IMG/VR virus record: IMGVR_UViG_2721755643_000007
From: a virus
Lineage: Duplodnaviria > Heunggongvirae > Uroviricota > Caudoviricetes
Length of the DNA: 57,277 nucleotides
Direction: 5' to 3' (one strand)
Shown here: one piece after another, positions 4,232-57,277 of the stretch
Position numbering within the stretch: position 1 is the stretch's first letter
Layout: every line of letters begins with the position of its first letter
Made by a program: the position numbers and the translations under genes
Notes under the pieces: generated by a model
The model's database searches: none
What the model was told of the DNA's origin: nothing
The model's input: the letters and a program-made list of their open reading frames with translations, nothing else

Positions 4232-7200
4232 TCAACGAATACTGATGCCGGAAGCGGCTTTTTTGGTCACAATCACCGTACAGTCGGTGATATTGCCTGC
4301 CCCCTGATTGCCTTTCTGGAAAACCTTAAACTCCAGAGTGACGCTTCCCCTGCCACTCGGCATATCAATAACCGCACTGTAGCTACCGGGAATGGCCCCT
4401 TTAGTTTCTCTGGATGCGATTAATACACCGTTTTTGCGAACTTCAAAACCATAACCCGTGTATCTTGTACCTCCCGGGTTATTACCACTTCCCGGATCGC
4501 TATACGCTATTCCGTTAAAGATAATGGGCGGAATAATGATTTGACGGTCAAAGTTATGATCATCGCTGATGGTGACTGTAACCGTCCCGTTTGGTGTTTC
4601 CGTGTTACCCCACGTACCAGCCTGTTTCGGGAATGATTTGGATACAGCTTTAACGAAGTCACCTCTGACCTGAGTCGCCTCCAGCATGCCCTTAATCGTA
4701 CAGTTTTCATTTACCGTGACATTGTTGAGCGTCCCGGCGTTCGCATTCACGTTACCGCTGATATCGGCATTTTTCGCCGTCAGCCGCCCGTCCGGTGTCA
4801 GGGAAAATACCGGAGGATTACCGCCGCTGGTAATGGTGGGAGCCGTCAGGCGTTTCAGGAACACTTCGTTCATGAATATCTGATCGCCCTGACCAACAAA
4901 CATCGGCTTTGTGTTGCCATTCGCAGGATTAATCATCGCAATCCTGTCTGCCGCCAGCAGCACCTGACTCTGCATGCCGCCAGGGGTGTTCTCAATACCG
5001 GCACCAATACCCGCGATATAAAGGCGTCCGTCCTGCATCTGCTGCAGCTTCACAGCCCACATGCTGTTCAGGTTATTATTTGTATCAACCTGAACCTTCT
5101 GTATCTGCTGAATTGCCGCACTCTGGTCTTCCAGTTTCTTATTGACGGTCTGTGTGATTTCATTGCTGACATCCGTAATGGATGTCCTGATTTCAGCCAG
5201 GTCAGGCGCAAGCTGACCGTTATCAATCTGCGTCCACAGCTCCTGAGCCAGATGGGTTTTCCCTATCTCGCCTTTGAAAAAATCCAGATAGCCGGATGCG
5301 TCATCACTCGGCTGACCAACAGCCTCCACGAATGCCGATTTGCCAACGGTGTTCACACTGCGAACGTAAAAATAATAATCATGGCCCGGTTTGATATTGA
5401 TACTGGCGGCTATCCAGTACAGCGCCGTGCCAAGATAGCGGGCTGTGGTTTCAACCTGCCTGATATCCGCAATCCGCTTTTCCGAGAACCAGAACTCAAA
5501 CTGTACCGTCGGATCATAAACGGCAAGATGCGGCGTGGCGGTTATCTGAAAATAGCCCGGCGTCAGCTCAATCCGCGACGGCGCTGCCGGTGCGGCAATC
5601 CGGAACGATACCGACGCCGGATCGCCCTGCTGTCCCCATGCATTTACTGCCCGGACTGTCAGCCTGTAGTTCCCCAGAGCCAGTTGTGTGAAGCGGTAAG
5701 TGGTTTCCGTCGTCCGGGCCGTGCTGACCAGCCGCTCACTGCCGTCATCCGCTGCCACGGTCAGGCGAAGCATAAAGCTCACCCCCTTCACCACCTTCGG
5801 CGTGTCCCAGCGGGCCAGCACCTGGTATTCCCCGCTGTCTGCGGTGACTTCGGCGGTCAGATGCTGCACTGCTGGCGGCGTGACACCATTCACCGTGCCG
5901 CTCTGGTTACCGTCAAAGTGCGCCCCGTTATCCACGATGGCTTCTTTCTCCGGTACATGCTGCACTGCAGTGATGGCATACGTACCGTCGTCGTTCTCAC
6001 GGATACTCACACAGCGGAACAGGCGCTGGCGCAGCGTCGGCAGCTTCAGCCCCCACACGCTGTACTCGGCAACGCCGTCAGGAACCCGGCTCACTTTCAC
6101 CTTCACGCCGTCGGTGATGGACTGGACCTCCACGCTGACCGGACTCCCCTGCCCGTCAACCAGGCTTATCAGCGTGGTGCCGGAAGATGGCAGCGTGATT
6201 TCACGGTCGAGCGTCAGCGTCCGGGTCTGGCTGTTTACCGCCAGCACGCGCCCGCCGGTGCGGATACCGGCATAGTCATCATCGCAGATTTCAATGACAT
6301 CGCCCGGTACATGGCGAAGCCCTTCGGCACCCACGCTGAAGTCCACGGTCTGCGTTTCCAGCAGTTCTGTTTTAATCAGCCACAGCCCGGCGCGGTGTGC
6401 CTGCCCCCGGCTGGTACAGCCAAAGGCATCCATCTTCGTGACGTTACGACCGTAACGGGCAATGGCCTGCGTGTCCTCCACAAGCTCTGTCGCCGTCTCC
6501 CAGCCGTTATTCGGGTCAATCCAGTTCACCTCAACGGCATTATGGCGGTCCTTCAGGGCGCTGAAGCTGTAGCGGAACGGCGCACCATCATCCGGCATCA
6601 CCACATTACTGCGGTTATAGGTCCACACCTTATCCGACGGTCGGTCCTGCACGAACGTCAGCGTCTGCCCGTTCCATACCGGCATACAGCGCATCGCAGA
6701 GCAGAAATCACTGAGCACATCCCACGCCTTGCGCTGTGTGGTCAGGTACGCATTACAGGTGATGCGCGGCTCCGTGCCGCCAAAACCGTCCGGCACCGAC
6801 TGATCGCAATGCTGGCCGATGACATACAGCGCCCATTTGTCCACATCCGCCGCACCAAGACGTTTCCCCATGCCGTAGCGCGGATGGGTCAGCATATCCC
6901 ACAGACACCAGGCCATGTTGTTGCTGTATGCTGGCTTAAACGTTCCGTCCCAGATACCGCTGTATTGCCGCGTCTGCGGGTTATAGTTCGACGGCACCTG
7001 CAGAATGCGCCCGCGCAGATGATAATTACGGCTCACCTGCTGGCTGCCGAACTGCTCCGAATCCACCTGCACGCCGACCAGTGCCGTGTTCGGGTAGCAC
7101 TGTTTCACATCGATGATTTCGGTGTATGACGACCAGAGCGTTTTGTTCTGCAGCTGGTCTGTGGTGCTGTCCGGCGTCATCCTGCGCATCCGTATATTGA

Positions 7201-44818: not shown

Positions 44819-45724
44819 CTATATTTCCAGACATCTGTTATCACTTAACCCATTACAAGCCCGCTGCCGCAGATATTCCCGTGGCGAGCGATAACCCAGC
44901 GCACTATGCGGATGCCATTCGTTATAATGCTCGAACGCCTCTGCAAGGTTCTTTGCTGCCGTTAACCCGTCTGGTTTGGGCATGATACTGATGTAGTCAC
45001 GCTTTATCGTTTTCACGAAGCTCTCTGCTATTCCGTTACTCTCCGGACTCCGCACCGCCGTGTTCTTCGGTTCAAGTCCCAACATCCGGGCGAACTGGCG
45101 TGTTTCATTAGCCCGGTAGCATGAACCATTATCCGTCAGCCACTCCACTGGAGACGACGGAAGATCGTTGCCGAAGCGGCGTTCCACCGCTCCCAGCATG
45201 ACGTCCTGTACTGTTTCACTGTTGAAGCCGCCGGTAGTCACCGCCCAGTGCAGTGCCTCACGATCACAGCAGTCCAGCGCGAACGTGACACGCAGTCTCT
45301 CTCCGTTATCACAGCAGAACTCGAACCCGTCAGAGCACCATCGCTGATTGCTTTCTTTCACGGCCACTCTGCCTGTATGTGCCCGTTTCGATGGCGGTAC
45401 AGCAGGTTTTCGCTCAAGCAACAGCGCATTCTGGCGCATGATCCGGTAAACACGTTTGGCATTGATCGCAGGCATACCATCAAGTTCTGCCTGTCTGCGA
45501 AGCAGCGCCCATACCCGACGATAACCATACGTGGGCAGCTCTCCGATAACATGGTGTATACGGAGAAGCACATCCGTATCATCAGTGTGACGACTGCGGC
45601 GGCCATCCATCCAGTCATCGGTTCGTCTGAGAATGACGTGCAACTGCGCACGCGACACCCGGAGACAACGGCTGACTAAGCTTACTCCCCATCCCCGGGC
45701 AATAAGGGCGCGTGCGCTATCCAC
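44819..45724 (-). CDS. insD: IS2 transposase OrfB (InsD)
   Basis: 301 aa with DDE integrase-like core; IS2 InsD-like sequence. Confidence 0.9.
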
Positions 45725-46047
45725 TTTTTTGCCCGTCCATATTCAACGGCTTCTTTGAGGAGTTCATTTTCCATCGTTTTCTTGCCGAGCAGGCGCTGGA
45801 GTTCTTTAATCTGCTTCATGGCGGCAGCAAGTTCAGAGGCAGGAACAACCTGTTCTCCGGCGGCCACAGCAGTAAGACTTCCTTCCTGGTATTGCTTACG
45901 CCAGAGAAATAACTGGCTGGCTGCTACACCATGTTGCCGGGCAACGAGGGAGACCGTCATCCCCGGTTCAAAGCTCTGCTGAACAATTGCGATCTTTTCC
46001 TGTGTGGTACGCCGTCTGCGTTTCTCCGGCCCTAAGACATCAATCAT
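45682..46047 (-). CDS. insC: IS2 OrfA (InsC)
   Basis: Start [41 protein letters not shown]; HTH protein overlapping insD. Confidence 0.9.
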
Positions 46048-46383
46048 CTGTACTCCAATGACTAGTCTAAAAACTAGTATTAAGACTATCACTTATTTAA
46101 GTGATACTGGTTGTCTGGAGATTCAGGGGGCCAGTCTAGGCACTCTGGCGACACTCCTTAAAAATCAGATTCGTGCTCACCTTTCCTTCCCGTTCTTCTC
46201 TGGTAGCGAACCGGTAATACACCGTTCGCCAGACCTTACCATCAACGACCAGGATTCCTGCCCGCGTCATTTTAGCCGCAGCCTGATTTATGCTGGTTAC
46301 GGTTGCGCCTGTTACCGCGGCAACGTCCTGTGCACAGAAGCTCTTATGCGTCCCCAGGTAATGAATAATTGCCTCTTTGCCCG

Positions 46384-47085
46384 TCATACACTTGCTCCTT
46401 TCAGTCCGAACTTAGCTTTAATTTCTGCGATCTTCGCCAGAGCCTGTGCACGATTTAGAGGTCTACCGCCCATAACAGGAAGTTGTTTTACTGGTTCAGG
46501 TATCGTCTCACCACGGTTAATTCGCGCTGTCATACAGGTCAGTTCATCGGCAGCCTTGCGCCGTAATTCCGCGTCAGTCAGCGCATTGGCCCGCATGTTC
46601 TGGTACAAGTTGGTAACCAACCAGTAATGCGCGTTCGATTTCCACGGATAAGACTCTGCATCCGGATACAGGCCACGCTTCCGGCAATACTCGTAAACCA
46701 TATCAACCAGCTCGCTGACGTTTGGCAGCCCGGCGTTAACAGATGCTTCTTCCCGGCACCAGGCGACAAACTGCCCGGGTGATGGCAGGAATGGTCGATT
46801 CTGCCGACGGGCTACGCGCATTCCAGCGTTAACCTGTTCCATTGTGGTGATCCCGTTTTCCCGGAAAGCCAGAACCCACTGGCGGCGGATTTCGTTCAGT
46901 TCATTCTGGTCACGGTTAGCCAGGCTCGCCGGGAAAGTTGCCAGTAACTGGCTGAACACACCGTTGATGATCTGCGCTACCTGCTGTACCTGTGGCTTTT
47001 CGTCGTACTGTTCCGGCATGTTGTTGGCGATCCGGCGCATCTGCTCACAGTCAAAGTTAACCATCTGTGCGGCGATGTTTTTCAT
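46384..47085 (-). CDS. P: replication protein P (DnaB helicase loader)
   Basis: 233 aa MKNIAAQMVNFDCEQMRRIANNMPEQYDEKPQ matches lambda P. Confidence 0.95.
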   Translation of the reverse strand: MKNIAAQMVNFDCEQMRRIANNMPEQYDEKPQVQQVAQIINGVFSQLLATFPASLANRDQNELNEIRRQWVLAFRENGITTMEQVNAGMRVARRQNRPFLPSPGQFVAWCREEASVNAGLPNVSELVDMVYEYCRKRGLYPDAESYPWKSNAHYWLVTNLYQNMRANALTDAELRRKAADELTCMTARINRGETIPEPVKQLPVMGGRPLNRAQALAKIAEIKAKFGLKGASV

Positions 47086-48011
47086 AGCTCCACCCCGTAA
47101 ATCCAGTCAGTGTTCGTCAGGTCGAGTTTTGGTTTGCCGGCTATCACGCCAGCCTGTTGCTTGTTTCGGTTGATTTCGAGCTGGGTCCACTTGTCGCGGA
47201 GTTTGGCCGGACTTAGCACGTTACCGGACCAGAAGTTGTCCTGGCATGCCCAGCGGAACAGCACACACATGTCGCGGTGGTTACGTCCGTCACGTTCACG
47301 CATCAGGCGGATATCGTTAGCCCACCCTGCAAAATTCGGTTTTCTGGCTGATGGCGCGATGGTCTTCACCATGTCAAACATCCACTCTGCGGCGGTCAGG
47401 TCTTCTGCTGTCCCCCACTTGCTGCCGCTCTGAATTGCAGCATCCGGTTTCACCACAGGAAGATCGTTTTCTGGTTGGTCAGAGGATTCGCCAGAATTCT
47501 CGGACGAAAAAGGTTTTATATTGTCTTTTGTTAGTTTGTCTTTTGTGTTTACCTGATTCGGGTAAACGCCTTTACCTGATTTGGGTAAACTTTTTTTACC
47601 TGATTCAGGTAAATTTACCTCTTTCAGGTAAACTTTATTTTTCTTACCTGATTCGGGTAATGTTGACCATTCACTGACCACATTATTAATGCCGGTATTC
47701 CGCCCGCTCTGAATAAAAATCCCACGCTTTACCAGAACACTTTTTGCAGCAGAACACTTGTGCGGCAATATCCCGGTTAATTCGGAAAGTTGCTCGTTGC
47801 TAACCCAATCCAGTTTTTTATTAAAGCCATATGTTTTGCGCATGACAGCCAGAAAGACCAGAAGCTGGTGCTGTGTTAATCCGGCCAGCATCACAGCTTC
47901 CAGCAACTCATTTGCAATGCGCGTATAACCATCATCGAGATCTGCCACGCGCGGCTCCTTTTGTGCCGCATCCGGCACTGGAAAATTGAATATCTCAGCA
48001 GTGTTTGCCAT
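47082..48011 (-). CDS. O: replication initiator O
   Basis: Start MANTAEIFNFPVPD; ori iterons embedded in the gene; ORF track extends 30 codons upstream. Confidence 0.85.
   Translation of the reverse strand: MANTAEIFNFPVPDAAQKEPRVADLDDGYTRIANELLEAVMLAGLTQHQLLVFLAVMRKTYGFNKKLDWVSNEQLSELTGILPHKCSAAKSVLVKRGIFIQSGRNTGINNVVSEWSTLPESGKKNKVYLKEVNLPESGKKSLPKSGKGVYPNQVNTKDKLTKDNIKPFSSENSGESSDQPENDLPVVKPDAAIQSGSKWGTAEDLTAAEWMFDMVKTIAPSARKPNFAGWANDIRLMRERDGRNHRDMCVLFRWACQDNFWSGNVLSPAKLRDKWTQLEINRNKQQAGVIAGKPKLDLTNTDWIYGVEL
47530..47660. repeat. ori iterons within gene O
   Basis: Four or more copies of TACCTGATTCGGGTAA-like repeats (GTTTACCTGATTCGGGTAAACG, TTTACCTGATTTGGGTAAAC, TTACCTGATTCAGGTAAA ...) next to an AT-rich tract. 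Confidence 0.8.
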
Positions 48012-48097
48012 AATTCCTCCCGCAATGAGTGTGTTACGATTTGCACCTGAAAGTCGGTTCTGTTCCAGCAGACCGGCTTTCGCCATTTCTGAACCTG

Positions 48098-48637
48098 TCA
48101 TATCGCCCCCAGCATGGTAGTAACCATCGCCATCAATGGACCAGCCAGATCTGGGTCCACACGAAACATCGACACAATACCTTCACTAATTTCCTTCAGT
48201 TTCTGGTGGCGTGGTGCGTTGAGAATGACAGCCTGTTTTGCCTCACTGAGTTCCTTTTCCATTTCAGCCAACCTAGCCATGAAGCTATCCTGCTCAACCA
48301 GGTAACCGCGATATTCCAGCGGTAGTACCGCCAGAATTGCCGGGGTCAGTTCACGCACGTTATTTCGGTATTTTTCAGAATCGAATTTGTTATCGAGGAA
48401 GCGGAACAGCTTCTGGCGTGCACGGCTGACATCATCAGGGAAATCGATGGTGCCGCCGCCCTGCTCCCGATACTCATTCACAATGAGTGTGGCAACGACA
48501 TCCTGATTATCTACAGCCGACCAGGCGCGGACGGCATCACGGATTTTTTCGTGGCCTGGCACCTGTTTTGTTTGAGAACGATTTATCACCGCAGTCGGGC
48601 TAAATCCGCTAGTCTGTTGGTATGTAAGTGGTTGCAT
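48098..48637 (-). CDS. hypothetical early regulatory protein (possibly YdaT/CII-like)
   Basis: 179 aa between the cro-like gene and O, where CII-type regulators sit; family assignment tentative. Confidence 0.4.
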   Translation of the reverse strand: MQPLTYQQTSGFSPTAVINRSQTKQVPGHEKIRDAVRAWSAVDNQDVVATLIVNEYREQGGGTIDFPDDVSRARQKLFRFLDNKFDSEKYRNNVRELTPAILAVLPLEYRGYLVEQDSFMARLAEMEKELSEAKQAVILNAPRHQKLKEISEGIVSMFRVDPDLAGPLMAMVTTMLGAI

Positions 48638-48706
48638 AATTGACTCCTTTAGTTTGAATTGACTGTTAAGTTGATTGCTTATTGTTAAAGAGCGTGAAAT
48701 GGAAAT

Positions 48707-48937
48707 TTAAGCTGCGTTCTTTTCGGTGTGTGGAAACAACTTCGGAAGATCCGGGCGAATCTGGTATGCCTTCACTACTCCACCAGTAGCCGTAACAATG
48801 CTGCCGACATGTTCAGGGGATACCTTTGCTTTGTTGTGAAGCCACTTATAGACGGCCTGCTGTGAAACTTCGCAAGCAGCGCCCAGTTTCTTTTGTGAAC
48901 CAACGATATTGATCGCTGTTTTGATAGCTGGGTTCAT
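48707..48937 (-). CDS. Cro-like HTH repressor
   Basis: 76 aa with HTH GSQKKLGAACEVSQQAVYKWL; divergent from cI. Confidence 0.75.
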   Translation of the reverse strand: MNPAIKTAINIVGSQKKLGAACEVSQQAVYKWLHNKAKVSPEHVGSIVTATGGVVKAYQIRPDLPKLFPHTEKNAA

Positions 48938-49041
48938 AACAACCTCCGTGGTTAATTTGAATCAAGATTAAAACTATGGTTGTTTTTAGTCAACAACCAT
49001 TTTCGTTTGATGGGATAAAACCTTGGTTGTACATTTGGACT
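48938..49041. promoter_or_regulatory. immunity-region operators/promoters (OR-like) between cro and cI
   Basis: Inverted repeat ATGGTTGTT-tttagtc-AACAACCAT plus a further CCTTGGTTGT half-site in the divergent intergenic region. Confidence 0.6.
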
Positions 49042-49731
49042 ATGAAAACAACACTCTCAGAAAGACTTAAAGAAGCCAGATTAGCGCGAGGCCTTACACA
49101 AAAGGCGCTTGGGGATTTGGTCGGGGTTAGCCAGGCTGCTATTCAGAAAATCGAAACAGGGAAAGCTAATCAAACAACTAAAATCGTGGAGATCGCGAAC
49201 GCTTTGGGTGTGCGCGCAGAATGGTTATCTTCTGGCGTTGGAAATATGTCAGACAGTACAGTGCAACCAATACAATCAACTGTCAGCCATTCCAAATACT
49301 TCAAGATTGACGTTCTTGATATAGAAGTCAGTGCTGGGCCGGGAGTCATCAACCGTGAGTTTGTAGAAGTTCTACGCTCGGTTGAGTACTCGTTTGACGA
49401 TGCTCGTCACATGTTCGATGGTAGGAAGGCGGAAAATATCCGCATCATTAACGTGCGTGGTGACAGCATGTCAGGAACGATCGAACCAGGTGATCTGCTG
49501 TTCGTTGATATCACAGTTAAATCTTTCGACGGTGATGGTATCTATGCGTTTCTGTACGACGACACAGCCCATGTAAAGCGCCTGCAAATGATGAAGGATA
49601 AGCTGCTGGTCATCTCTGATAACAAAAGCTACTCACCGTGGGACCCGATCGAGAAAGACGAGATGAACCGGGTGTTCATCTTCGGTAAGGTTATTGGGAG
49701 CATGCCGCAGACATATAGGAAGCATGGGTAG
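49042..49731 (+). CDS. cI: CI-type repressor (HTH plus S24 LexA-like peptidase domain)
   Basis: Start MKTTLSERLKEARLARGLTQKALGDLVGVSQAAIQKIE; C-terminal GDSM ... K catalytic-dyad region; ORF track extends 22 codons upstream. Confidence 0.85.
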   Translation: MKTTLSERLKEARLARGLTQKALGDLVGVSQAAIQKIETGKANQTTKIVEIANALGVRAEWLSSGVGNMSDSTVQPIQSTVSHSKYFKIDVLDIEVSAGPGVINREFVEVLRSVEYSFDDARHMFDGRKAENIRIINVRGDSMSGTIEPGDLLFVDITVKSFDGDGIYAFLYDDTAHVKRLQMMKDKLLVISDNKSYSPWDPIEKDEMNRVFIFGKVIGSMPQTYRKHG

Positions 49732-49852
49732 TACCAATTAAAAATTATCAACTGGGCATTGTGCTCATTCAGTAAAGAACTAATTCCTATCTTTGCTCTA
49801 GGTAGTAATATTAAGCCACCGCAATAATATCTTTACCTAACGGCGTAAGAAT

Positions 49853-49879
49853 CCCGGTCACCGTGCCGGGTTTTCTTTT
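49853..49879 (+). terminator. rho-independent terminator downstream of cI
   Basis: CCCGGTCACCGTGCCGGG followed by TTTTCTTTT. Confidence 0.6.
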
Positions 49880-50010
49880 GCCCTCCCCTCATCACACACA
49901 CACCGTTAAAAAAACCACCATAACCTCGCTTCAGTTATCGCTATGCGATTCAAGTCACAAAATAAATCCATCCTAAATACAACCAGTTATATCTAAAACA
50001 ACCAATAAAA

Positions 50011-50053
50011 CAACTTTTGTTGTTGACGATAAAACAACTATAGTTTTAAATAA
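50011..50053 (+). promoter_or_regulatory. pL-like promoter with OL-like operator
   Basis: AACAAC-TTTT-GTTGTT inverted repeat overlapping TTGACG (50025-50030), 17-nt spacer, TTAAAT (50048-50053); shares the ACAAC half-site with the OR region. Confidence 0.45.
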
Positions 50054-50244
50054 GTTCATCGCAACAACACAACGATACGGCAACTACCTGATTCACCGTT
50101 GCGATGACCGCTTAGATCCGCAGTTTGAATTTCAGCAGGCTTCGGGGAGTGCGAGGGGTGAAACGGACGCGTGAACGTCGGTGTGACCAGCTGAAATTAA
50201 CTCAACATTTCATACCTTAGTCGCTTCAACGAGGCGGCTTAGTT

Positions 50245-50535
50245 ATGACAACCGGCGGCCATCCACCGCCTGAATACGCGCAGAAGTCTCTATATGTTCA
50301 GCAGCCCAGCTTACGGGCAGGAGTTTTTATGGTTCATCAACATTATGGAACGCAGACCGTTAATCGAGGTGCGGTCATGCCAGGAATGCTGGTCAAACAC
50401 AAAGATGGTACCTGGACTGCATCAGCTAATTTACGCGGACGGCTTTATCTGCATCGCGGCATCGAGCGCACTTATACCCGTGATTTGCTCGTGGAAGTTT
50501 TTCTCGACGGACGCGGTAACGGCCTGAATCACTAA
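50245..50535 (+). CDS. hypothetical protein (96 aa), first ORF of the leftward early operon
   Basis: ORF upstream of gam; not similar to recalled lambda N, cIII or kil. Confidence 0.35.
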
Positions 50536-50610
50536 TCCCCTTTCCTGTTTTCCTAATCAGCCTGGCATTTCGCGGGCGATATTTTCACAGCCATTTTCAG
50601 GAGGTCAGCC

Positions 50611-50907
50611 ATGAACGCTTATTACATTCAGGATCGTCTTGAGGCTCAGAGCTGGGCGCGTCACTACCAGCAGATCGCCCGTGAAGAGAAAGAGGCAGAA
50701 CTGGCAGACGACATGGAAAAAGGCCTGCCCCAGCACCTGTTTGAATCGCTATGCATCGATCATTTGCAACGCCACGGGGCCAGCAAAAAAGCCATTACCC
50801 GTGCGTTTGATGACGATGTTGAGTTTCAGGAGCGCATGGCAGAACACATCCAGTACATGGTTGAAACCATTGCTCACCACCAGGTTGATATTGATTCAGA
50901 GGTATAA
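50611..50907 (+). CDS. gam: Gam (RecBCD inhibitor, short form)
   Basis: 98 aa [56 protein letters not shown] matches lambda GamS. Confidence 0.95.
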
Positions 50908-50912
50908 AACGG

Positions 50913-51698
50913 ATGAGTACAGCACTCGCAACGCTGGCAGGGAAGCTGGCTGAACGTGTCGGCATGGATTCTGTCGACCCACAGGAACTGATCACCACTC
51001 TTCGCCAGACGGCATTTAAAGGTGATGCCAGCGATGCGCAGTTCATCGCATTGTTGATCGTCGCCAACCAGTACGGCCTTAATCCGTGGACGAAAGAAAT
51101 TTACGCCTTCCCTGATAAGCAGAACGGCATCGTTCCGGTGGTGGGCGTTGATGGCTGGTCCCGCATCATCAATGAAAACCAGCAGTTTGATGGCATGGAC
51201 TTTGAGCAGGACAATGAATCCTGTACATGCCGGATTTACCGCAAGGACCGTAATCATCCGATCTGCGTTACCGAATGGATGGATGAATGCCGCCGCGAAC
51301 CATTCAAAACTCGCGAAGGCAGAGAAATCACGGGGCCGTGGCAGTCGCATCCCAAACGGATGTTACGGCATAAAGCCATGATTCAGTGTGCCCGTCTGGC
51401 CTTCGGATTTGCTGGTATCTATGACAAGGATGAAGCCGAGCGCATTGTCGAAAATACCGCATACACTGCAGAACGTCAGCCAGAACGCGACATCACTCCG
51501 GTTAACGATGAAACCATGCAGGAGATTAACACTCTGCTGATCGCCCTGGATAAAACATGGGATGACGACTTATTGCCGCTCTGTTCCCAGATATTTCGCC
51601 GCGACATTCGCGCATCGTCAGAACTGACACAGGCCGAAGCAGTGAAAGCTCTTGGATTCCTGAAACAGAAAGCCACTGAGCAGAAGGTGGCAGCATGA
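50913..51698 (+). CDS. bet: Bet (Red beta single-strand annealing protein)
   Basis: 261 aa [50 protein letters not shown] matches lambda Bet. Confidence 0.95.
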
Positions 51699-52375
51699 CA
51701 CCGGACATTATCCTGCAGCGTACCGGGATCGACGTGAGAGCTGTCGAACAGGGGGATGATGCATGGCACAAATTACGGCTCGGCGTCATCACCGCTTCAG
51801 AAGTTCACAACGTGATAGCAAAGCCCCGCTCAGGAAAGAAGTGGCCTGACATGAAAATGTCCTACTTCCACACCCTGCTGGCTGAGGTTTGCACCGGTGT
51901 GGCTCCGGAAGTTAATGCTAAGGCGCTGGCCTGGGGAAAACAGTACGAGAACGACGCCAGAACCCTGTTTGAATTCACTTCCGGCGTGAATGTTACTGAA
52001 TCCCCGATCATCTATCGCGACGAAAGTATGCGCACCGCCTGCTCTCCCGATGGTTTATGCAGTGACGGCAACGGCCTTGAACTGAAATGCCCGTTTACCT
52101 CCCGGGATTTCATGAAGTTCCGGCTCGGTGGTTTCGAGGCCATAAAATCGGCTTACATGGCCCAGGTGCAGTACAGCATGTGGGTGACGCGAAAAGATGC
52201 CTGGTACTTTGCCAACTATGACCCGCGTATGAAGCGTGAAGGCCTGCATTATGTCGTGATTGAGCGGAATGAAAAGTACATGGCGAATTTTGACGAGATG
52301 GTGCCGGAGTTCATCGAAAAAATGGACGTGGCACTGGCTGAAATTGGTTTTGTATTTGGGGAGCAATGGCGATGA
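51695..52375 (+). CDS. exo: Exo (lambda exonuclease)
   Basis: 226 aa [51 protein letters not shown] matches lambda Exo. Confidence 0.95.
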
Positions 52376-52554
52376 AGCATCCTCACGATAATATCCGGGT
52401 AGGCACGATCACTTTCGTCTACTCCGTTACGAAGCGAGGCTGGGTATTTCCCGGCCTTTCTGTTATCCGAAATCCCCTGAAAGCACAGCGGCTGGCTGAG
52501 GAGATAAATAATAAACGGGGAGCTGTATGCACAAAGCATCTCCCGTTGAGTTAA
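52366..52554 (+). CDS. small hypothetical ORF (62 aa)
   Basis: Small ORF overlapping the exo stop, co-oriented with the operon. Confidence 0.35.
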
Positions 52555-52718
52555 GAACGAGTATCGAGATGGCACATAGCCTCGCTCAAATTGGAGTCAG
52601 GTTTGTGCCAATACCAGTAGAAACAGACGAAGAATTTCATACGTTAGCCGCATCCCTTTCACAAAAGCTGGAAATGATGGTGGCGAAAGCAGAAGCAGAT
52701 GAGAGAGACCAGGTATGA
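52527..52718 (+). CDS. small hypothetical ORF (63 aa)
   Basis: Small co-oriented ORF. Confidence 0.35.
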   Translation: MHKASPVELRTSIEMAHSLAQIGVRFVPIPVETDEEFHTLAASLSQKLEMMVAKAEADERDQV

Positions 52719-53010
52719 CAACCACGGAATGCATTTTTCTGGCAGCGGACTTCATATTCTGTGTGCTTATGCTTGCCGACATGGGACTTGTTCAATGACA
52801 CCTCAGCAGGAAAACGCCCTTCGCAGCATTGCCCGTCAGGCTAATTCTGAAATCAAAAAAGCCAGACAGCAGTTTCCGGATAAAAACGTCGATGACATTT
52901 GCCGTAGCGTACTGAAGAAGCACCGCGAAACGGTAACGCTGATGGGATTCACACCGACTCATTTAAGCCTGGCAATCGGCATGTTAAACGGCGTCTTTAA
53001 GGAACGATGA
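52699..53010 (+). CDS. small hypothetical protein (true start possibly the internal MTPQQENALRSIARQ)
   Basis: Co-oriented ORF in the ea-type region. Confidence 0.4.
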   Translation: MRETRYDNHGMHFSGSGLHILCAYACRHGTCSMTPQQENALRSIARQANSEIKKARQQFPDKNVDDICRSVLKKHRETVTLMGFTPTHLSLAIGMLNGVFKER

Positions 53011-53108
53011 ACATGAAAAGCAAAATCATCAGGGAGCTACAGGCTCCTTTTTTATTATTCGCATTCACCCTCAAGCGTATTAACCAACAATTCAGGGATT
53101 AATGGAAG

Positions 53109-53330
53109 ATGGCAGACATCATTGATTCAGCATCAGAAATTGAAGAATTACAGCGCAACACAGCAATAAAAATGCGCCGCCTGAACCACCAGGCTATATC
53201 TGCCACTCATTGTTGTGAGTGTGGCGATCCGATAGATGAACGAAGACGCCTGGTCGTTCAGGGTTGTCGGACTTGTGCAAGTTGCCAGGAGGATCTGGAG
53301 CTTATCAGTAAACAGAGAGGTTCGAAGTGA
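53109..53330 (+). CDS. DksA/TraR-family C4 zinc-finger protein
   Basis: 73 aa with CCECGDPIDERRR ... CRTCASCQ four-Cys motif. Confidence 0.8.
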   Translation: MADIIDSASEIEELQRNTAIKMRRLNHQAISATHCCECGDPIDERRRLVVQGCRTCASCQEDLELISKQRGSK

Positions 53331-53540
53331 GCGAAATTAACTAGAAGCCAAAGATAAAATCATCGCTGAGCAGGAGAAAATCGCTAACGGAGAAAAGACA
53401 GTAAGTCAGTATATGAAAACCGCATGATATCATCAGATAAAAATCGGTCGTAAAGCGAAATATTAATACCAGAACAAACGAGTCGAGGTAAATTATATTA
53501 CCTCGATAAATTAACTAAAACTTGCCCGCTATATACTATA

Positions 53541-54143
53541 TCATTCAGTATCATCACGCGCGGTCTGTGCATATGTCACTACCGCACCTAATATATTAAT
53601 TTTCTTTTCAACATAGATAATATTATCGTACTCATAATTGCCATACGGATAGCAAATGCGAATATTCTCATGTAGTTCGGGGTCATCCACCTCAGCTCCA
53701 GAACAACTTTTTGAACTACCGGAAGTATACCGATACGGTGCAACATAAGACGATGTCTCTCCAGGCAAAAAATAAGTTAGTGTCGTAAGGGGTATAATCA
53801 GAAAAAATCCAGCAAATATGCACATCCCTGCATAAACCTTAAGGTATGCTGACAGACTCTTCCAGCCTCTTTGTTTTACTATCCCCTTCTTAACCCAAAA
53901 CAGAGATAACAGAAAAGCTATTCCCATGCTAAACAGAATGTAATAGTGGGATATACTCTGATTAAGAAACGTGACCCTGTAGATATCTGCCCGCCACCAG
54001 AAGAAAAGGAAAATAAAGATCAGCCCTGAAACTGTCATGCAAATCAAATAAGGATACGAATCTTTTTTCATGTTTAGCGCCCATAAAATTTTTCCTGACC
54101 CGGACAAATTTACCATCCATTTTTTGCGCAGAAAATAGCTCAT
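53541..54143 (-). CDS. integral membrane protein (4 predicted TM segments), moron-like
   Basis: 200 aa with hydrophobic segments LICMTVSGLIFIFLFFWW, YYILFSMGIAFLLSLFWV, MCIFAGFFLIIPLTTLTYF; AT-rich; opposite to neighbours. Confidence 0.55.
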   Translation of the reverse strand: MSYFLRKKWMVNLSGSGKILWALNMKKDSYPYLICMTVSGLIFIFLFFWWRADIYRVTFLNQSISHYYILFSMGIAFLLSLFWVKKGIVKQRGWKSLSAYLKVYAGMCIFAGFFLIIPLTTLTYFLPGETSSYVAPYRYTSGSSKSCSGAEVDDPELHENIRICYPYGNYEYDNIIYVEKKINILGAVVTYAQTARDDTE

Positions 54144-54385
54144 TACTTACTGCACAATAATACACAAAATTGCGTAAATTTTTTGCATGGATTTTAGCTC
54201 TTTCAGCCGAAATTTAAGGGGTAAATAGCATTTCCTAAAAGCAACTGCACCAACCCAACAGAATGGGCTACCGCTTACGTTGAGAGCAAAAAAGTGTATA
54301 GCAGCAATGAACAGCATCCTCGCACTGACGAGGATTTCTTTTATCTGAACTCGCTACGGCGGGTTTTGTTTTATGGAGATGATAA

Positions 54386-54553
54386 ATGCACTTCCGAGTC
54401 ACAGGTGAATGGAATGGAGAACCATTCAACAGAGTTATCGAAGCCGAGAACATCAGCGACTGCTATGACCACTGGATGCTGTGGGCGCAGATAGCACATG
54501 CAGACGTAACCAATATTCGAATTGAAGAACTGAAAGAACACCAAGCCGCCTGA
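54386..54553 (+). CDS. small hypothetical protein (55 aa) upstream of xis
   Basis: MHFRVTGEWNGEPFNRVIEAENISDCYDHWMLWAQIAHADVTNIRIEELKEHQAA; GGAG 7 nt upstream; translated by hand. Confidence 0.45.
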   Translation: MHFRVTGEWNGEPFNRVIEAENISDCYDHWMLWAQIAHADVTNIRIEELKEHQAA

Positions 54554-54566
54554 TGGCGGTTTTTTC
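54545..54566 (+). terminator. putative rho-independent terminator overlapping the end of the small ORF
   Basis: CCGCC-TGAT-GGCGG followed by TTTTTTC. Confidence 0.5.
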
Positions 54567-54592
54567 TTGCGTGTAATTGCGGAGACTTTGCG

Positions 54593-54811
54593 ATGTACTT
54601 GACACTTCAGGAGTGGAACGCACGCCAGCGACGCCCAAGAAGCCTTGAAACAGTTCGTCGATGGGTACGCGAGTGCAGGATATTCCCTCCTCCGGTTAAG
54701 GATGGAAGAGAGTATCTGTTCCACGAATCAGCGGTAAAGGTTGACTTAAATCGACCAGTAACAGGTAGCCTTTTGAAGAGGATCAGAAATGGGAAGAAGG
54801 CGAAGTCATGA
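54593..54811 (+). CDS. xis: excisionase Xis
   Basis: 72 aa MYLTLQEWNARQRRPRSLETVRRWVRECRIFPPPVKDGREYLF matches lambda Xis. Confidence 0.95.
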   Translation: MYLTLQEWNARQRRPRSLETVRRWVRECRIFPPPVKDGREYLFHESAVKVDLNRPVTGSLLKRIRNGKKAKS

Positions 54812-55859
54812 GCGCCGGGATTTACCCCCTAACCTTTATATAAGAAACAATGGATATTACTGCTACAGGGACCCAAGGACGGGTAAAGAGTTTGGATTAG
54901 GCAGAGACAGGCGAATCGCAATCACTGAAGCCATACAGGCCAACATTGAGTTATTTTCAGGACACAAACACAAGCCTCTGACAGCGAGAATCAACAGTGA
55001 TAATTCCGTTACGTTACATTCATGGCTTGATCGCTACGAAAAAATCCTGGCCAGCAGAGGAATCAAGCAGAAGACACTCATAAATTACATGAGCAAAATT
55101 AAAGCAATAAGGAGGGGTCTGCCTGATGCTCCACTTGAAGACATCACCACAAAAGAAATTGCGGCAATGCTCAATGGATACATAGACGAGGGCAAGGCGG
55201 CGTCAGCCAAGTTAATCAGATCAACACTGAGCGATGCATTCCGAGAGGCAATAGCTGAAGGCCATATAACAACAAACCCTGTCGCTGCCACTCGCGCAGC
55301 AAAATCAGAGGTAAGGAGATCAAGACTTACGGCTGACGAATACCTGAAAATTTATCAAGCAGCAGAATCATCACCATGTTGGCTCAGACTTGCAATGGAA
55401 CTGGCTGTTGTTACCGGGCAACGAGTTGGTGATTTATGCGAAATGAAGTGGTCTGATATCGTAGATGGATATCTTTATGTCGAGCAAAGCAAAACAGGCG
55501 TAAAAATTGCCATCCCAACAGCATTGCATGTTGATGCTCTCGGAATATCAATGAAGGAAACACTTGATAAATGCAAAGAGATTCTTGGCGGAGAAACCAT
55601 AATTGCATCTACTCGTCGCGAACCGCTTTCATCCGGCACAGTATCAAGGTATTTTATGCGCGCACGAAAAGCATCAGGTCTTTCCTTCGAAGGGGATCCG
55701 CCTACCTTTCACGAGTTGCGCAGTTTGTCTGCAAGACTCTATGAGAAGCAGATAAGCGATAAGTTTGCTCAACATCTTCTCGGGCATAAGTCGGACACCA
55801 TGGCATCACAGTATCGTGATGACAGAGGCAGGGAGTGGGACAAAATTGAAATCAAATAA
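54789..55859 (+). CDS. int: lambda integrase (tyrosine recombinase)
   Basis: 356 aa MGRRRSHERRDLPPNLYIRNNGYYCYRDPRTGKEFGLGRDRR matches lambda Int. Confidence 0.95.
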   Translation: MGRRRSHERRDLPPNLYIRNNGYYCYRDPRTGKEFGLGRDRRIAITEAIQANIELFSGHKHKPLTARINSDNSVTLHSWLDRYEKILASRGIKQKTLINYMSKIKAIRRGLPDAPLEDITTKEIAAMLNGYIDEGKAASAKLIRSTLSDAFREAIAEGHITTNPVAATRAAKSEVRRSRLTADEYLKIYQAAESSPCWLRLAMELAVVTGQRVGDLCEMKWSDIVDGYLYVEQSKTGVKIAIPTALHVDALGISMKETLDKCKEILGGETIIASTRREPLSSGTVSRYFMRARKASGLSFEGDPPTFHELRSLSARLYEKQISDKFAQHLLGHKSDTMASQYRDDRGREWDKIEIK

Positions 55860-55955
55860 TGATTTTATTTTGACTGATAGTGACCTGTTCGTTGCAACAA
55901 ATTGATAAGCAATGCTTTTTTATAATGCCAACTTAGTATAAAAAAGCAGGCTTCA
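55860..55955. other. attL (B-O-P') of the lambda-like prophage
   Basis: Reverse complement reads CCTGCTTTTTTATACTAAGTTGGCATTATAAAAAAGCATTGCTTATCAATTTGTTGCAACGAACAGGTCACTATCAGTCAAAATAAAATCA, i.e. the lambda core GCTTTTTTATACTAA (within 55932-55947) joined to the P' arm; host DNA begins beyond. Confidence 0.85.
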
Positions 55956-55993
55956 ACGGATTCATTTTTCTATTTCATAGCCCGGAGCAACCT

Positions 55994-57277
55994 GTGAACA
56001 CATTTTCAGTTTCCCGTCTGGCGCTGGCATTGGCTTTTGGCGTGACGCTGACCGCCTGTAGCTCAACCCCGCCCGATCAACGTCCTTCTGATCAAACCGC
56101 GCCTGGTACCTCTTCTCGCCCGATTCTGTCGGCAAAAGAAGCGCAGAATTTCGATGCTCAACACTATTTTGCATCCCTGACACCAGGTGCTGCAGCGTGG
56201 AATCCTTCCCCGATTACCCTGCCTGCGCAACCTGACTTTGTTGTCGGCCCGGCGGGCACTCAAGGTGTAACGCATACCACGATTCAGGCGGCGGTAGATG
56301 CGGCAATTATCAAGCGTACCAACAAGCGCCAGTATATTGCCGTGATGCCTGGTGAGTATCAGGGAACGGTATATGTCCCTGCCGCTCCGGGTGGAATTAC
56401 TCTGTACGGTACAGGTGAAAAACCGATTGATGTGAAGATTGGGCTTTCCCTTGATGGTGGCATGAGCCCTGCCGACTGGCGTCACGACGTCAACCCGCGC
56501 GGCAAATATATGCCAGGTAAACCAGCGTGGTATATGTACGATAGCTGCCAGAGCAAACGCAGCGACAGTATCGGTGTTCTCTGCTCTGCGGTCTTCTGGT
56601 CACAAAACAATGGCCTGCAACTGCAAAATCTGACCATCGAAAACACGCTGGGCGATAGCGTAGATGCAGGTAACCATCCGGCGGTGGCACTGCGTACTGA
56701 TGGTGACCAGGTACAGATTAACAACGTTAACATTCTCGGTCGTCAGAACACCTTCTTTGTCACCAACAGCGGTGTGCAGAACCGTCTGGAAACCAACCGT
56801 CAGCCGCGTACGCTGGTGACCAACAGCTACATTGAAGGGGATGTGGATATCGTTTCTGGTCGCGGCGCAGTGGTGTTCGATAACACCGAATTCCGCGTGG
56901 TGAACTCACGTACTCAGCAAGAAGCGTATGTGTTTGCACCGGCTACGCTGTCCAACATTTACTACGGTTTCCTCGCCGTAAACAGCCGTTTCAATGCTTT
57001 CGGTGATGGTGTGGCGCAACTGGGCCGCTCGCTGGATGTTGATGCCAATACCAACGGTCAGGTGGTGATCCGTGATAGCGCCATCAACGAAGGTTTTAAC
57101 ACGGCTAAACCGTGGGCCGATGCGGTGATCTCTAATCGTCCGTTTGCGGGTAATACCGGCAGCGTAGATGATAACGACGAAATACAGCGCAATCTGAATG
57201 ACACTAACTACAACCGCATGTGGGAATACAATAACCGCGGCGTGGGTAGTAAAGTGGTTGCAGAGGCGAAGAAGTAA
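55994..57277 (+). CDS. ybhC: host lipoprotein YbhC (pectinesterase-family thioesterase)
   Basis: 427 aa with lipoprotein signal MNTFSVSRLALALAFGVTLTACSS; known neighbour of the lambda attB. Confidence 0.85.
   Translation: MNTFSVSRLALALAFGVTLTACSSTPPDQRPSDQTAPGTSSRPILSAKEAQNFDAQHYFASLTPGAAAWNPSPITLPAQPDFVVGPAGTQGVTHTTIQAAVDAAIIKRTNKRQYIAVMPGEYQGTVYVPAAPGGITLYGTGEKPIDVKIGLSLDGGMSPADWRHDVNPRGKYMPGKPAWYMYDSCQSKRSDSIGVLCSAVFWSQNNGLQLQNLTIENTLGDSVDAGNHPAVALRTDGDQVQINNVNILGRQNTFFVTNSGVQNRLETNRQPRTLVTNSYIEGDVDIVSGRGAVVFDNTEFRVVNSRTQQEAYVFAPATLSNIYYGFLAVNSRFNAFGDGVAQLGRSLDVDANTNGQVVIRDSAINEGFNTAKPWADAVISNRPFAGNTGSVDDNDEIQRNLNDTNYNRMWEYNNRGVGSKVVAEAKK

Follow-up and report, generated by a model that had tools for sequence, protein, structure and literature searches.

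A candidate antitermination RNA in the pL leader of an N-less lambda-like prophage

The DNA analysed here, referred to below as the window, spans 57,277 nt and holds a lambda-like prophage adjoining ybhC. P, O, a YdaT/cII-like gene and a YdaS/cro-like gene are read from the minus strand, while on the plus strand the terminator of cI is followed in order by the pL promoter, a leader, an open reading frame (ORF) of 96 aa, gam, bet, exo, xis and int. The features that frame the region of interest are as follows.

48976-49731, plus strand: S24-type cI repressor gene
49853-49870, plus strand: terminator of cI
50005-50021 and 50029-50045, plus strand: OL operator repeats, with an inverted counterpart at OR (48968-48986)
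50023-50028 (TTGACG) and 50046-50051 (TTAAAT), plus strand: -35 and -10 hexamers of a pL-type promoter, read from the sequence, with a 17-nt spacer
50329-50535, plus strand: kil, encoding a KilR-type FtsZ inhibitor of 68 aa (PHROG_294), the C-terminal part of the 96-aa ORF
52436-52468, plus strand: terminator-like hairpin just 3' of exo, within DNA 98% identical to lambda
53031-53059, plus strand: strong intrinsic-terminator-like site, an 8-bp stem followed by TTTTATTATT
54789-55859, plus strand: lambda int

From position 50529 onwards, beginning inside the 3' end of kil, the DNA is essentially that of lambda: 50529-53342 shares 98% identity with lambda 33193-30380, and the figure for 54316-55947 against lambda 29355-27724 is 98.8%. 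By contrast, the lambda segment between pL and kil, with nutL, N, tL1, ral, sieB, ea10 and cIII, is entirely absent from the window, and its place is taken by a leader of ~270 nt and a kil gene that is not of lambda type. An earlier reading of the sequence (the first-pass annotation) had found no N, ral or cIII between pL and gam, and the ORF list together with Pfam and PHROGs profiles bears this out. Of the two terminator-like sites further downstream, the hairpin behind exo stands at what we take to be the position of lambda tL3; the site at 53031-53059 lies between an orf61 homologue and a TraR-like gene, upstream of xis and int. tL3 serves as a terminator in CRIM vectors (PMC2532685).

The same annotation had also reported the absence of kil, and had left the 96-aa ORF either as an unrecognised protein or as a possible analogue of N. 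Both statements have to be revised, since in a PHROGs profile search residues 20-96 of the ORF match PHROG_294, ‘Kil protein for bacterial septation inhibition’, with an E-value of 1.2e-38, and neither this nor any other ORF, nor the arginine-rich frame considered below, matches the N family in Pfam or PHROGs. What had been read as one protein is two ORFs joined in frame: a separate, short and conserved leader ORF supplies the first 28 codons, and a Kil of 68 aa the rest. We place the start of kil most likely at the ATG at 50329, on the strength of an AGGAG Shine-Dalgarno sequence and an N-terminus reading MVHQHYG; HK225 Kil is annotated as 68 aa from the equivalent ATG, and the PGAP annotation of an O157:H7 prophage also gives a 68-aa Kil. 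Position agrees with profile, in that kil lies directly upstream of gam as the first gene before gam and the recombination genes, and by eye a distant likeness to KilR of the Rac prophage can be seen. This corrects the annotation even if the antitermination reading developed below should fail: ORFs of 96, 128 or 136 aa recorded as ‘Kil’ or ‘hypothetical’ consist of a 68-aa Kil, a leader ORF and non-coding RNA.

The segment immediately upstream of kil is a conserved unit in its own right, which we call the ‘post-tL1’ leader module.

50211-50328, plus strand: ‘post-tL1’ leader module, comprising CATACC (50211-50216), a hairpin and a short ORF
50219-27/50231-39, plus strand: core of the module hairpin, covarying, which sequesters a GAGG Shine-Dalgarno sequence
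start at 50245, plus strand: short ORF ATGACAACCGGCGGCCATCCACC (MTTGGHPPP..), which runs in frame into kil

The module hairpin folds with a z-score of -4.7, and all substitutions within the family preserve its pairing. The window sequence 50208-50270 recurs in phi80, HK639 and HK225, and the module is also present in 17 genomes of Citrobacter, Enterobacter, Scandinavium and Huaxiibacter. Elsewhere it consists of CATACC, a hairpin that varies in sequence and keeps its pairing, and an ORF of 11-21 codons starting MTTGGHPP, the frame of which extends further in some loci. In the other phages with the module, CATACC directly adjoins a canonical intrinsic terminator, called tL1A in the phi80 record; no intrinsic terminator abuts it in the window. 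The ‘96-aa ORF’ arises because the short ORF has lost its stop codon here and continues into kil.

At the other end of the leader, the first-pass annotation had described a pL-like promoter, and this description holds, with -35 and -10 hexamers at a 17-nt spacing and repeated operators alongside; a direct repeat marks the OL region, and inverted repeats connect it with the OR region (48968-49014). Transcription probably starts at about 50058, in keeping with the point at which heteroimmune relatives enter the common leader (50056-50059, close to +1). The transcript would begin with the following structure.

50056-50107, plus strand: 5'-terminal hairpin of the pL transcript, a 10-bp stem with a C-rich loop of 32 nt

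Its two arms, TCATCGCAAC (50056-50065) and GTTGCGATGA (50098-50107), form a perfect stem (z = -3.0, with none of 200 shuffles folding as well). The hairpin is retained in immunity types a and b, is reduced to ~5 bp in type c (O157:H7 prophages), where a mosaic junction falls inside its loop, and is absent from Enterobacter-type leaders, whose 5' end is phi80-like. A second inverted repeat is formed by AATTTCAGCAGG (50128-50139) and CCAGCTGAAATT (50187-50198), with 11 of 12 positions able to pair. Both long repeats that had been described in the leader are thus present; the 196-nt leader taken as a whole gives an unremarkable z-score of -1.43.

Comparison of related leaders delimits, between the 5' hairpin and the module, a stretch of ~90 bases with a consensus fold of its own, referred to below as the element.

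50106-50196, plus strand: candidate antiterminator RNA cassette (covariance-model match 50103-50201)
50109-50153, plus strand: Domain I, with P1 (50109-11/50151-53), P2 (50118-20/50143-45), P3 (50122-27/50136-41) and apical loop AAUUUCAG
50157-50188, plus strand: Domain II, with P4 (50157-59/50186-88) and P5 (50163-68/50177-82)
50130-35 (UUUCAG) with 50191-96 (CUGAAA), plus strand: possible loop-tail pseudoknot

The consensus fold was derived from an alignment of 19 distinct variants (A2) and consists of two imperfect stem-loops with a possible pseudoknot between loop and tail. Over its 26 pairs and the 19 variants, 99.8% of cells are paired, compared with 29-42% when the partners are slid (another count gave 99.7% and 27-39%), and four pairs have changed on both sides (AU to CG, GC to AU, and AU to GC twice). 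This last number is not exceptional, being reached by 151 of 500 shuffles in a control, and the compensatory changes represent few independent events because the variants fall into about four lineages with identities of at least ~80%. The folding energy of the element is likewise ordinary (z between -0.3 and -1.5). When the window is folded only as far as 50190, as would occur during transcription, the two consensus stem-loops are the minimum-energy structure; the six pairs of the pseudoknot can form in every variant and are compatible with the two stem-loops. We rejected the second inverted repeat as a long functional hairpin, as first drawn, in favour of this pairing: pairing in the long hairpin reaches 92%, none of its pairs has changed on both sides, it clashes with P3 and it is broken in two of the loci (L225 and L228), and its central 6 bp remain as the possible pseudoknot. 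No reading frame that crosses the element is conserved.

A covariance model built on the consensus fold (R2) scores 124 bits at 50103-50201 and only 14 bits at the next match in the window, and it finds no second copy of the element in the window or in any of 28 loci, each having one. A second copy downstream of pR had been proposed as a check on the idea of a put-like signal; a blast of the leader against the window returns nothing but the operators on that side. Rfam, run on 45000-57277, gives no match to the leader (50000-50550) at E ≤ 10, which says little because Rfam lacks put and leaves true put sites unmatched at E ≤ 0.1 as well. Two known RNAs were considered and set aside as identities for the element. 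The ‘M3-like RNA’ of the HK639 pR operon shows no similarity to it; the HK639 record lists only this and a put-like RNA, neither of which resembles the element. The small RNA svsR of the NC101 prophage is a different feature, located at the 3' end of cI.

The context of the element outside E. coli proved the most informative. When the first 150 nt of the leader were compared with every collected locus by local blast, the first divergent copy of the element came to light. L225, an Enterobacter intestinihominis prophage that had entered the collection through a scan of genome contigs for the MTTGG module, is 82% identical to the window over 50103-50200, and its element is embedded in a pL leader of phi80/HK639 type. 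HK639 and three loci (L272, L233 and L225) share a 5' flank ending in GCCAGCGGCGAAGTGGAG and a 3' flank TTTACCAGCAGCTCTTTGCGAGGGGCTGACGG; the stretch that these enclose is annotated in HK639 as a ‘putL-like antiterminator RNA’ and is the element in the three loci. The exchange is clearest in L272, where ~3 kb of the pL operon match HK639 at 93% identity and the terminator region is kept, with putL swapped precisely for the element. The same cassette occurs in about twenty IMG/VR and metagenome contigs with several immunity regions, among them phi80-like (L233) and HK022-like (L330) ones; a scan of metagenomes added only two further loci, both of known subtypes.

We also took a census of the sequences that follow the conserved 5' flank in IMG/VR and in the loci already collected. 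Automatic classification gave 59 boxA, 52 put, 30 ‘other’ and 2 element sequences, and inspection of the ‘other’ class by eye showed nearly all of them to be boxA variants and two to be further variants of the element. On this census the site hosts three kinds of cassette (boxA/nutL, put and the element), of which the two known kinds, boxA/nutL and put, are antitermination signals. The shared flanks could, nevertheless, be recombination joints that accept any insert.

Throughout, the position of the element follows the pL start, not kil: relative to the inferred start its place is about +50 to +140, and this holds for eight or more immunity contexts. A distance of 0.7-2 kb, with other genes and terminators in between, separates it from kil in the phages from Enterobacter and IMG/VR. 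Intrinsic terminators follow the element in the relatives, two in L272, one in L225, and one in L322 (AACCCGCTCCGGCGGGTT and a T run, 5715-5732), where it lies ~1 kb past the element and before kil-gam-bet-exo. The ORFs that follow the element in phages from outside E. coli are lineage-specific with nothing in common, and the window has none. The complete genome of Perceval, a functional phage, has Q as its only annotated antiterminator, and the element-carrying O157:H7 prophage lacks N. Within E. coli the leader is very common: of 5426 complete genomes, 2209-2230 (~41%) contain it, the carriers including ST131 (EC958), O157:H7, O26:H11, O55:H7, LF82 and NC101. It was also found in 16 sequenced phages, including PhiR34_1 (100% identical), Perceval, 4A7 and Lambda_4C10.

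The first-pass annotation had suggested an RNA-based antitermination signal resembling the HK022 put sites, and had proposed a covariance comparison with putL. For this comparison we collected 57 distinct putL sequences from IMG/VR and aligned 26 of them with HK022 putR into a model of 27 sequences (R1). The positive controls are recovered (HK022 putL at 94 bits, HK639 putL at 90.7 bits and HK022 putR at 47.4 bits), whereas an unfiltered search of the window reaches no more than 8.8 bits (E 0.8) and yields nothing in 48600-50330. Because R1 is negative and no second copy lies past pR, we do not count the element as a member of the put family. The functional part of the suggestion fares better: the cassette swap, the downstream terminators and the covarying fold do support it, if indirectly.

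We propose that 50106-50196 is an apparently new cis-acting signal for processive antitermination that works with no dedicated phage protein, a reading to which we assign a probability of roughly 0.5. It is the best-supported reading, on positional and comparative grounds: the natural exchange with putL, the shared 5' flank, the terminators downstream, the lack of N and the maintained structure. The element would be complete by about nucleotide 140 of the pL transcript and would fold co-transcriptionally into its two imperfect stem-loops, possibly locked by the loop-to-tail pseudoknot. It would then enable the RNA polymerase that is transcribing it to resist terminators further downstream, acting alone or with host elongation factors and needing no N-like phage protein, as a functional analogue of HK022/HK639 put and of nutL with N that is unrelated to them in sequence and fold. 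In this prophage pL transcription would thereby be carried through the long untranslated leader and the lambda-derived terminators behind exo into xis and int, on the assumption that those terminators are efficient. Since tL1 is gone here, the terminators past exo (52436-52458 and 53031-53049) would be the nearest that call for read-through, and with no terminator close behind it the element could be partly a passenger in this particular prophage. More tentatively, and with slightly less conviction than we attach to the signal itself, the element may represent a third class of autonomous processive-antiterminator RNA, one that binds RNA polymerase as put does through a different fold and is naturally interchangeable with putL and nutL.

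The alternative that retains most weight, though we regard it as unlikely, is that the leader is an ordinary regulatory 5' untranslated region for the toxic kil gene with no part in antitermination, the phage tolerating partial read-through. It could stabilise the mRNA through its 5' hairpin, be a target of RNase III, act as a Rho-dependent attenuator or give rise to a small RNA. The Rac prophage offers precedents. Silencing of its kilR is reportedly exerted via Rho. It has been shown to work through NusG (PMC5793797), and the 5' untranslated region of the same gene gives rise to the small RNA KilS (PMC8175672). Several features of the window would suit such a role: the element lies just ~130 nt upstream of kil, tL1 is absent, the 5' hairpin has a loop that, like rut sites, is rich in C and poor in G, and the conserved short leader ORF resembles a regulatory leader peptide. 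However, the 0.7-2 kb of genes and terminators between element and kil in the Enterobacter and IMG/VR phages make the adjacency to kil a peculiarity of the E. coli type, and the element invariably tracks the start of pL rather than kil. The Rac leader is, moreover, unrelated in sequence, and we found no similarity between the window leader and the Rac kilR leader or KilS.

Distinctly unlikely in our judgement is that the element is a nut-like loading site dependent on a trans-acting protein (an unrecognised phage protein or the host Nus set) rather than an autonomous RNA. The element does sit behind the same conserved 5' flank as the boxA/boxB nutL of phi80-type phages, its invariant 5' segment GACCGCUUAGA is faintly like boxA (CGCUCUUA), and the pR side of the prophage has a feature that makes the use of Nus factors in its early transcription plausible.

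48682-48694, minus strand: perfect rrn-type boxA CGCTCTTTAACAA, 12 nt past the cro stop codon, the position of nutR

This boxA is the sole 12/12 match in 57 kb and may serve the right operon by attracting host Nus factors. Yet no boxB hairpin is found in the 50 nt that follow it, it is limited to the immunity type of the window, and the Perceval-type relatives have no boxA at all. On the pL side, no boxA within 3/12 mismatches occurs in 50000-50400. Because the apical loop of P5 varies by lineage (GCGUGAAC, GUGAGAGC and AAUGGAGA), it is no conserved boxB; the regions downstream of the element have no ORF in common, and the swap with putL took place in an HK639 background where the leader signal is annotated as an antiterminator RNA.

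A very improbable reading takes the region to be a functionless scar left by deletion of an ancestral nutL-N-tL1 segment. It would account for the direct passage, in the window, from the element to a module that elsewhere follows tL1, and N-independent expression of gam, bet and exo requires only that tL1 be absent. Against it stand the clean boundaries of the cassette across no fewer than eight immunity contexts and several genera, its presence in some two-fifths of complete E. coli genomes, its occurrence in phages deposited as complete genomes with recorded hosts, the pairings kept by compensatory changes, and the lack of similarity to any N gene or nut region.

The last candidate is a frame that overlaps the element and that we judge to be non-coding.

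50125-50220, plus strand: arginine-rich frame ..RLRGVRGVKRTRERRCDQ.. (..KRTRERR..)

We give almost no credence to the idea that this frame, or its fusion to Kil, is a minimal N-like peptide and the 96- or 136-aa ORF an analogue of N: although ..KRTRERR.. resembles the arginine-rich motif of lambda N (TRRRERR), although CAG replaces TAG 50218 in 42 of 53 variants, where TTG 50125 begins an uninterrupted frame of 136 aa that takes in Kil, and although several records annotate the long ‘Kil’, the frame is stopped by TAG 50218 in the window, is thrown out of phase in four E. coli variants by an insertion of 5 nt, contains in-frame TGA codons in the Enterobacter homologue L225 (read directly from its sequence), shows non-conservative changes upstream of its candidate GTG starts, matches no protein family and has no boxB partner at pR, and the annotators of HK225, like PGAP, settled on the 68-aa Kil.

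To our knowledge, RNA-only processive antitermination in phages comprises essentially one family, put, with one solved structure. If the antitermination reading of the element is correct, a second, unrelated RNA would show that different folds can reprogramme RNA polymerase, and it would account for expression of the early left operon, excision and recombination genes included, in the N-less lambda-like prophages, a very common group with members in ST131, O157:H7, O26, LF82 and NC101. The element would also provide a compact part for building terminator-proof transcription units, and the natural exchanges of put for the element amount to ready-made isogenic test constructs.

Among known systems, the Rac kilR leader shares with the window a KilR-type gene behind a long structured untranslated leader; it differs in that KilS ends in an intrinsic terminator, of which the window leader has none, and in that the element is unlinked to kil in relatives. 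The rrn antitermination system (NusB/E/A/G, SuhB and S4) acts mainly on Rho-dependent terminators. The pR transcript matches its boxA core GCTCTTTAACAA at 12/12 positions and carries no phage boxB; this likeness is confined to the pR side and to one immunity type, and the pL element has no boxA. With the N-nut systems of lambda and phi80 the element shares an early position in the left leader, phi80 nutL lying behind the same 5' flank, and the prophage shares with them a boxA at the nutR position. It differs from lambda in having no N protein, no boxA or boxB in the pL leader and no boxB beside the pR boxA.

The closest parallel is with the put sites of HK022 and HK639, the latter of which reportedly lacks N. 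Neither sequence nor covariance models reveal any similarity between put and the element, the helices and conserved nucleotides being different, and unlike HK022 the prophage has no second copy of the putR type. Where put has a stem-I triplex (PMC9378689), the element has a possible loop-tail pseudoknot. Read-through at put depends on the zinc-binding domain of the beta' subunit and is blocked by the rpoC mutation Y75N. In other respects the two correspond: both occupy the first ~50-150 nt of the pL transcript in lambdoid phages devoid of N, both measure ~75-90 nt, both form two imperfect stem-loops and both lie upstream of intrinsic terminators. With its stem-loops at about +51 to +131 and no N, the element has the architecture of put, a resemblance that is architectural only. 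The HK639 record annotates its put-like copy in the left operon only, and the element is likewise a single left-operon copy; in the relatives that share the HK639 leader, it is found at the very site of the put-like RNA, between identical flanks.

3′ of tL1, many Enterobacteriaceae lambdoid prophages carry a conserved module, in which CATACC is followed by a covarying hairpin over the Shine-Dalgarno sequence, then by a short ORF that starts MTTGGHPP(P/T/S) and has a polyproline stretch, and by a conserved GAAGTCTTGT. The genes downstream of the module differ between loci. One possible role is that of a translation- or Rho-coupled attenuator. The module was located in the window and in comparison loci from other phages and prophages (L-numbers) as follows:

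Window 50211-50328, post-tL1 module
L004 3501-3600, L005 3490-3580, L006 3500-3640 and L210-L226, the same module

The MTTGG ORF, from 50245 in the window, is in frame with the 68-aa kil gene (50329-50535), and annotation of this region is affected in the window and its relatives. Across it (50125-50535 in the window and the equivalent stretch of relatives), gene callers report either 'Kil' proteins of 128-139 aa or, instead, a 77-aa ORF in the wrong frame. These oversized or wrong-frame calls are a fusion of non-coding leader, MTTGG ORF and 68-aa Kil.

Window 50294-50527, wrong-frame 77-aa ORF called in the kil region
L001 4377-4763, L208 7057-7476 and L010 2297-2707, relatives with such kil-region calls

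Just past ren in the pR operon lies an ORF judged by eye to be IS3-family transposase orfA-like (45682-46092, - strand), which suggests an insertion sequence within the early right operon of the prophage. A 200-aa membrane-protein-like ORF on the opposite strand (53541-54143, - strand) separates xis from the lambda-like orf61/TraR region; pL transcription reaching xis and int must traverse it antisense.

On the pR side, the only 12/12 boxA match across the window is restricted to its immunity type, and was not found in Perceval-type relatives with the same pL leader.

Window 48682-48694, - strand, perfect rrn-type boxA, CGCTCTTTAACAA, 12 nt past the cro stop, without boxB

Two IMG/VR loci (L141 and L158) have hybrid leaders, in which stem I of the HK022-type put RNA (..AAACCATGCGTCGG) is joined directly to a consensus boxA, AACCGCTCTTTAACAA, in place of put stem II. 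In L322, which carries the candidate antiterminator element, a stretch of the phage pL operon ~280 nt 3′ of the element (4959-5005) matches bacterial 16S rRNA positions 237-283 (Rfam, 37 bits, E 2e-7).

Lastly, a related small hairpin, CATCG..CGAT, opens the pL transcripts of the heteroimmune phi80, HK225, HK639, window type and O157 type, despite their differing promoters and operators.

Window 50057-50076, L004 ~2776-2796, L005 ~2276-2296 and L041, pL transcript starts with this hairpin
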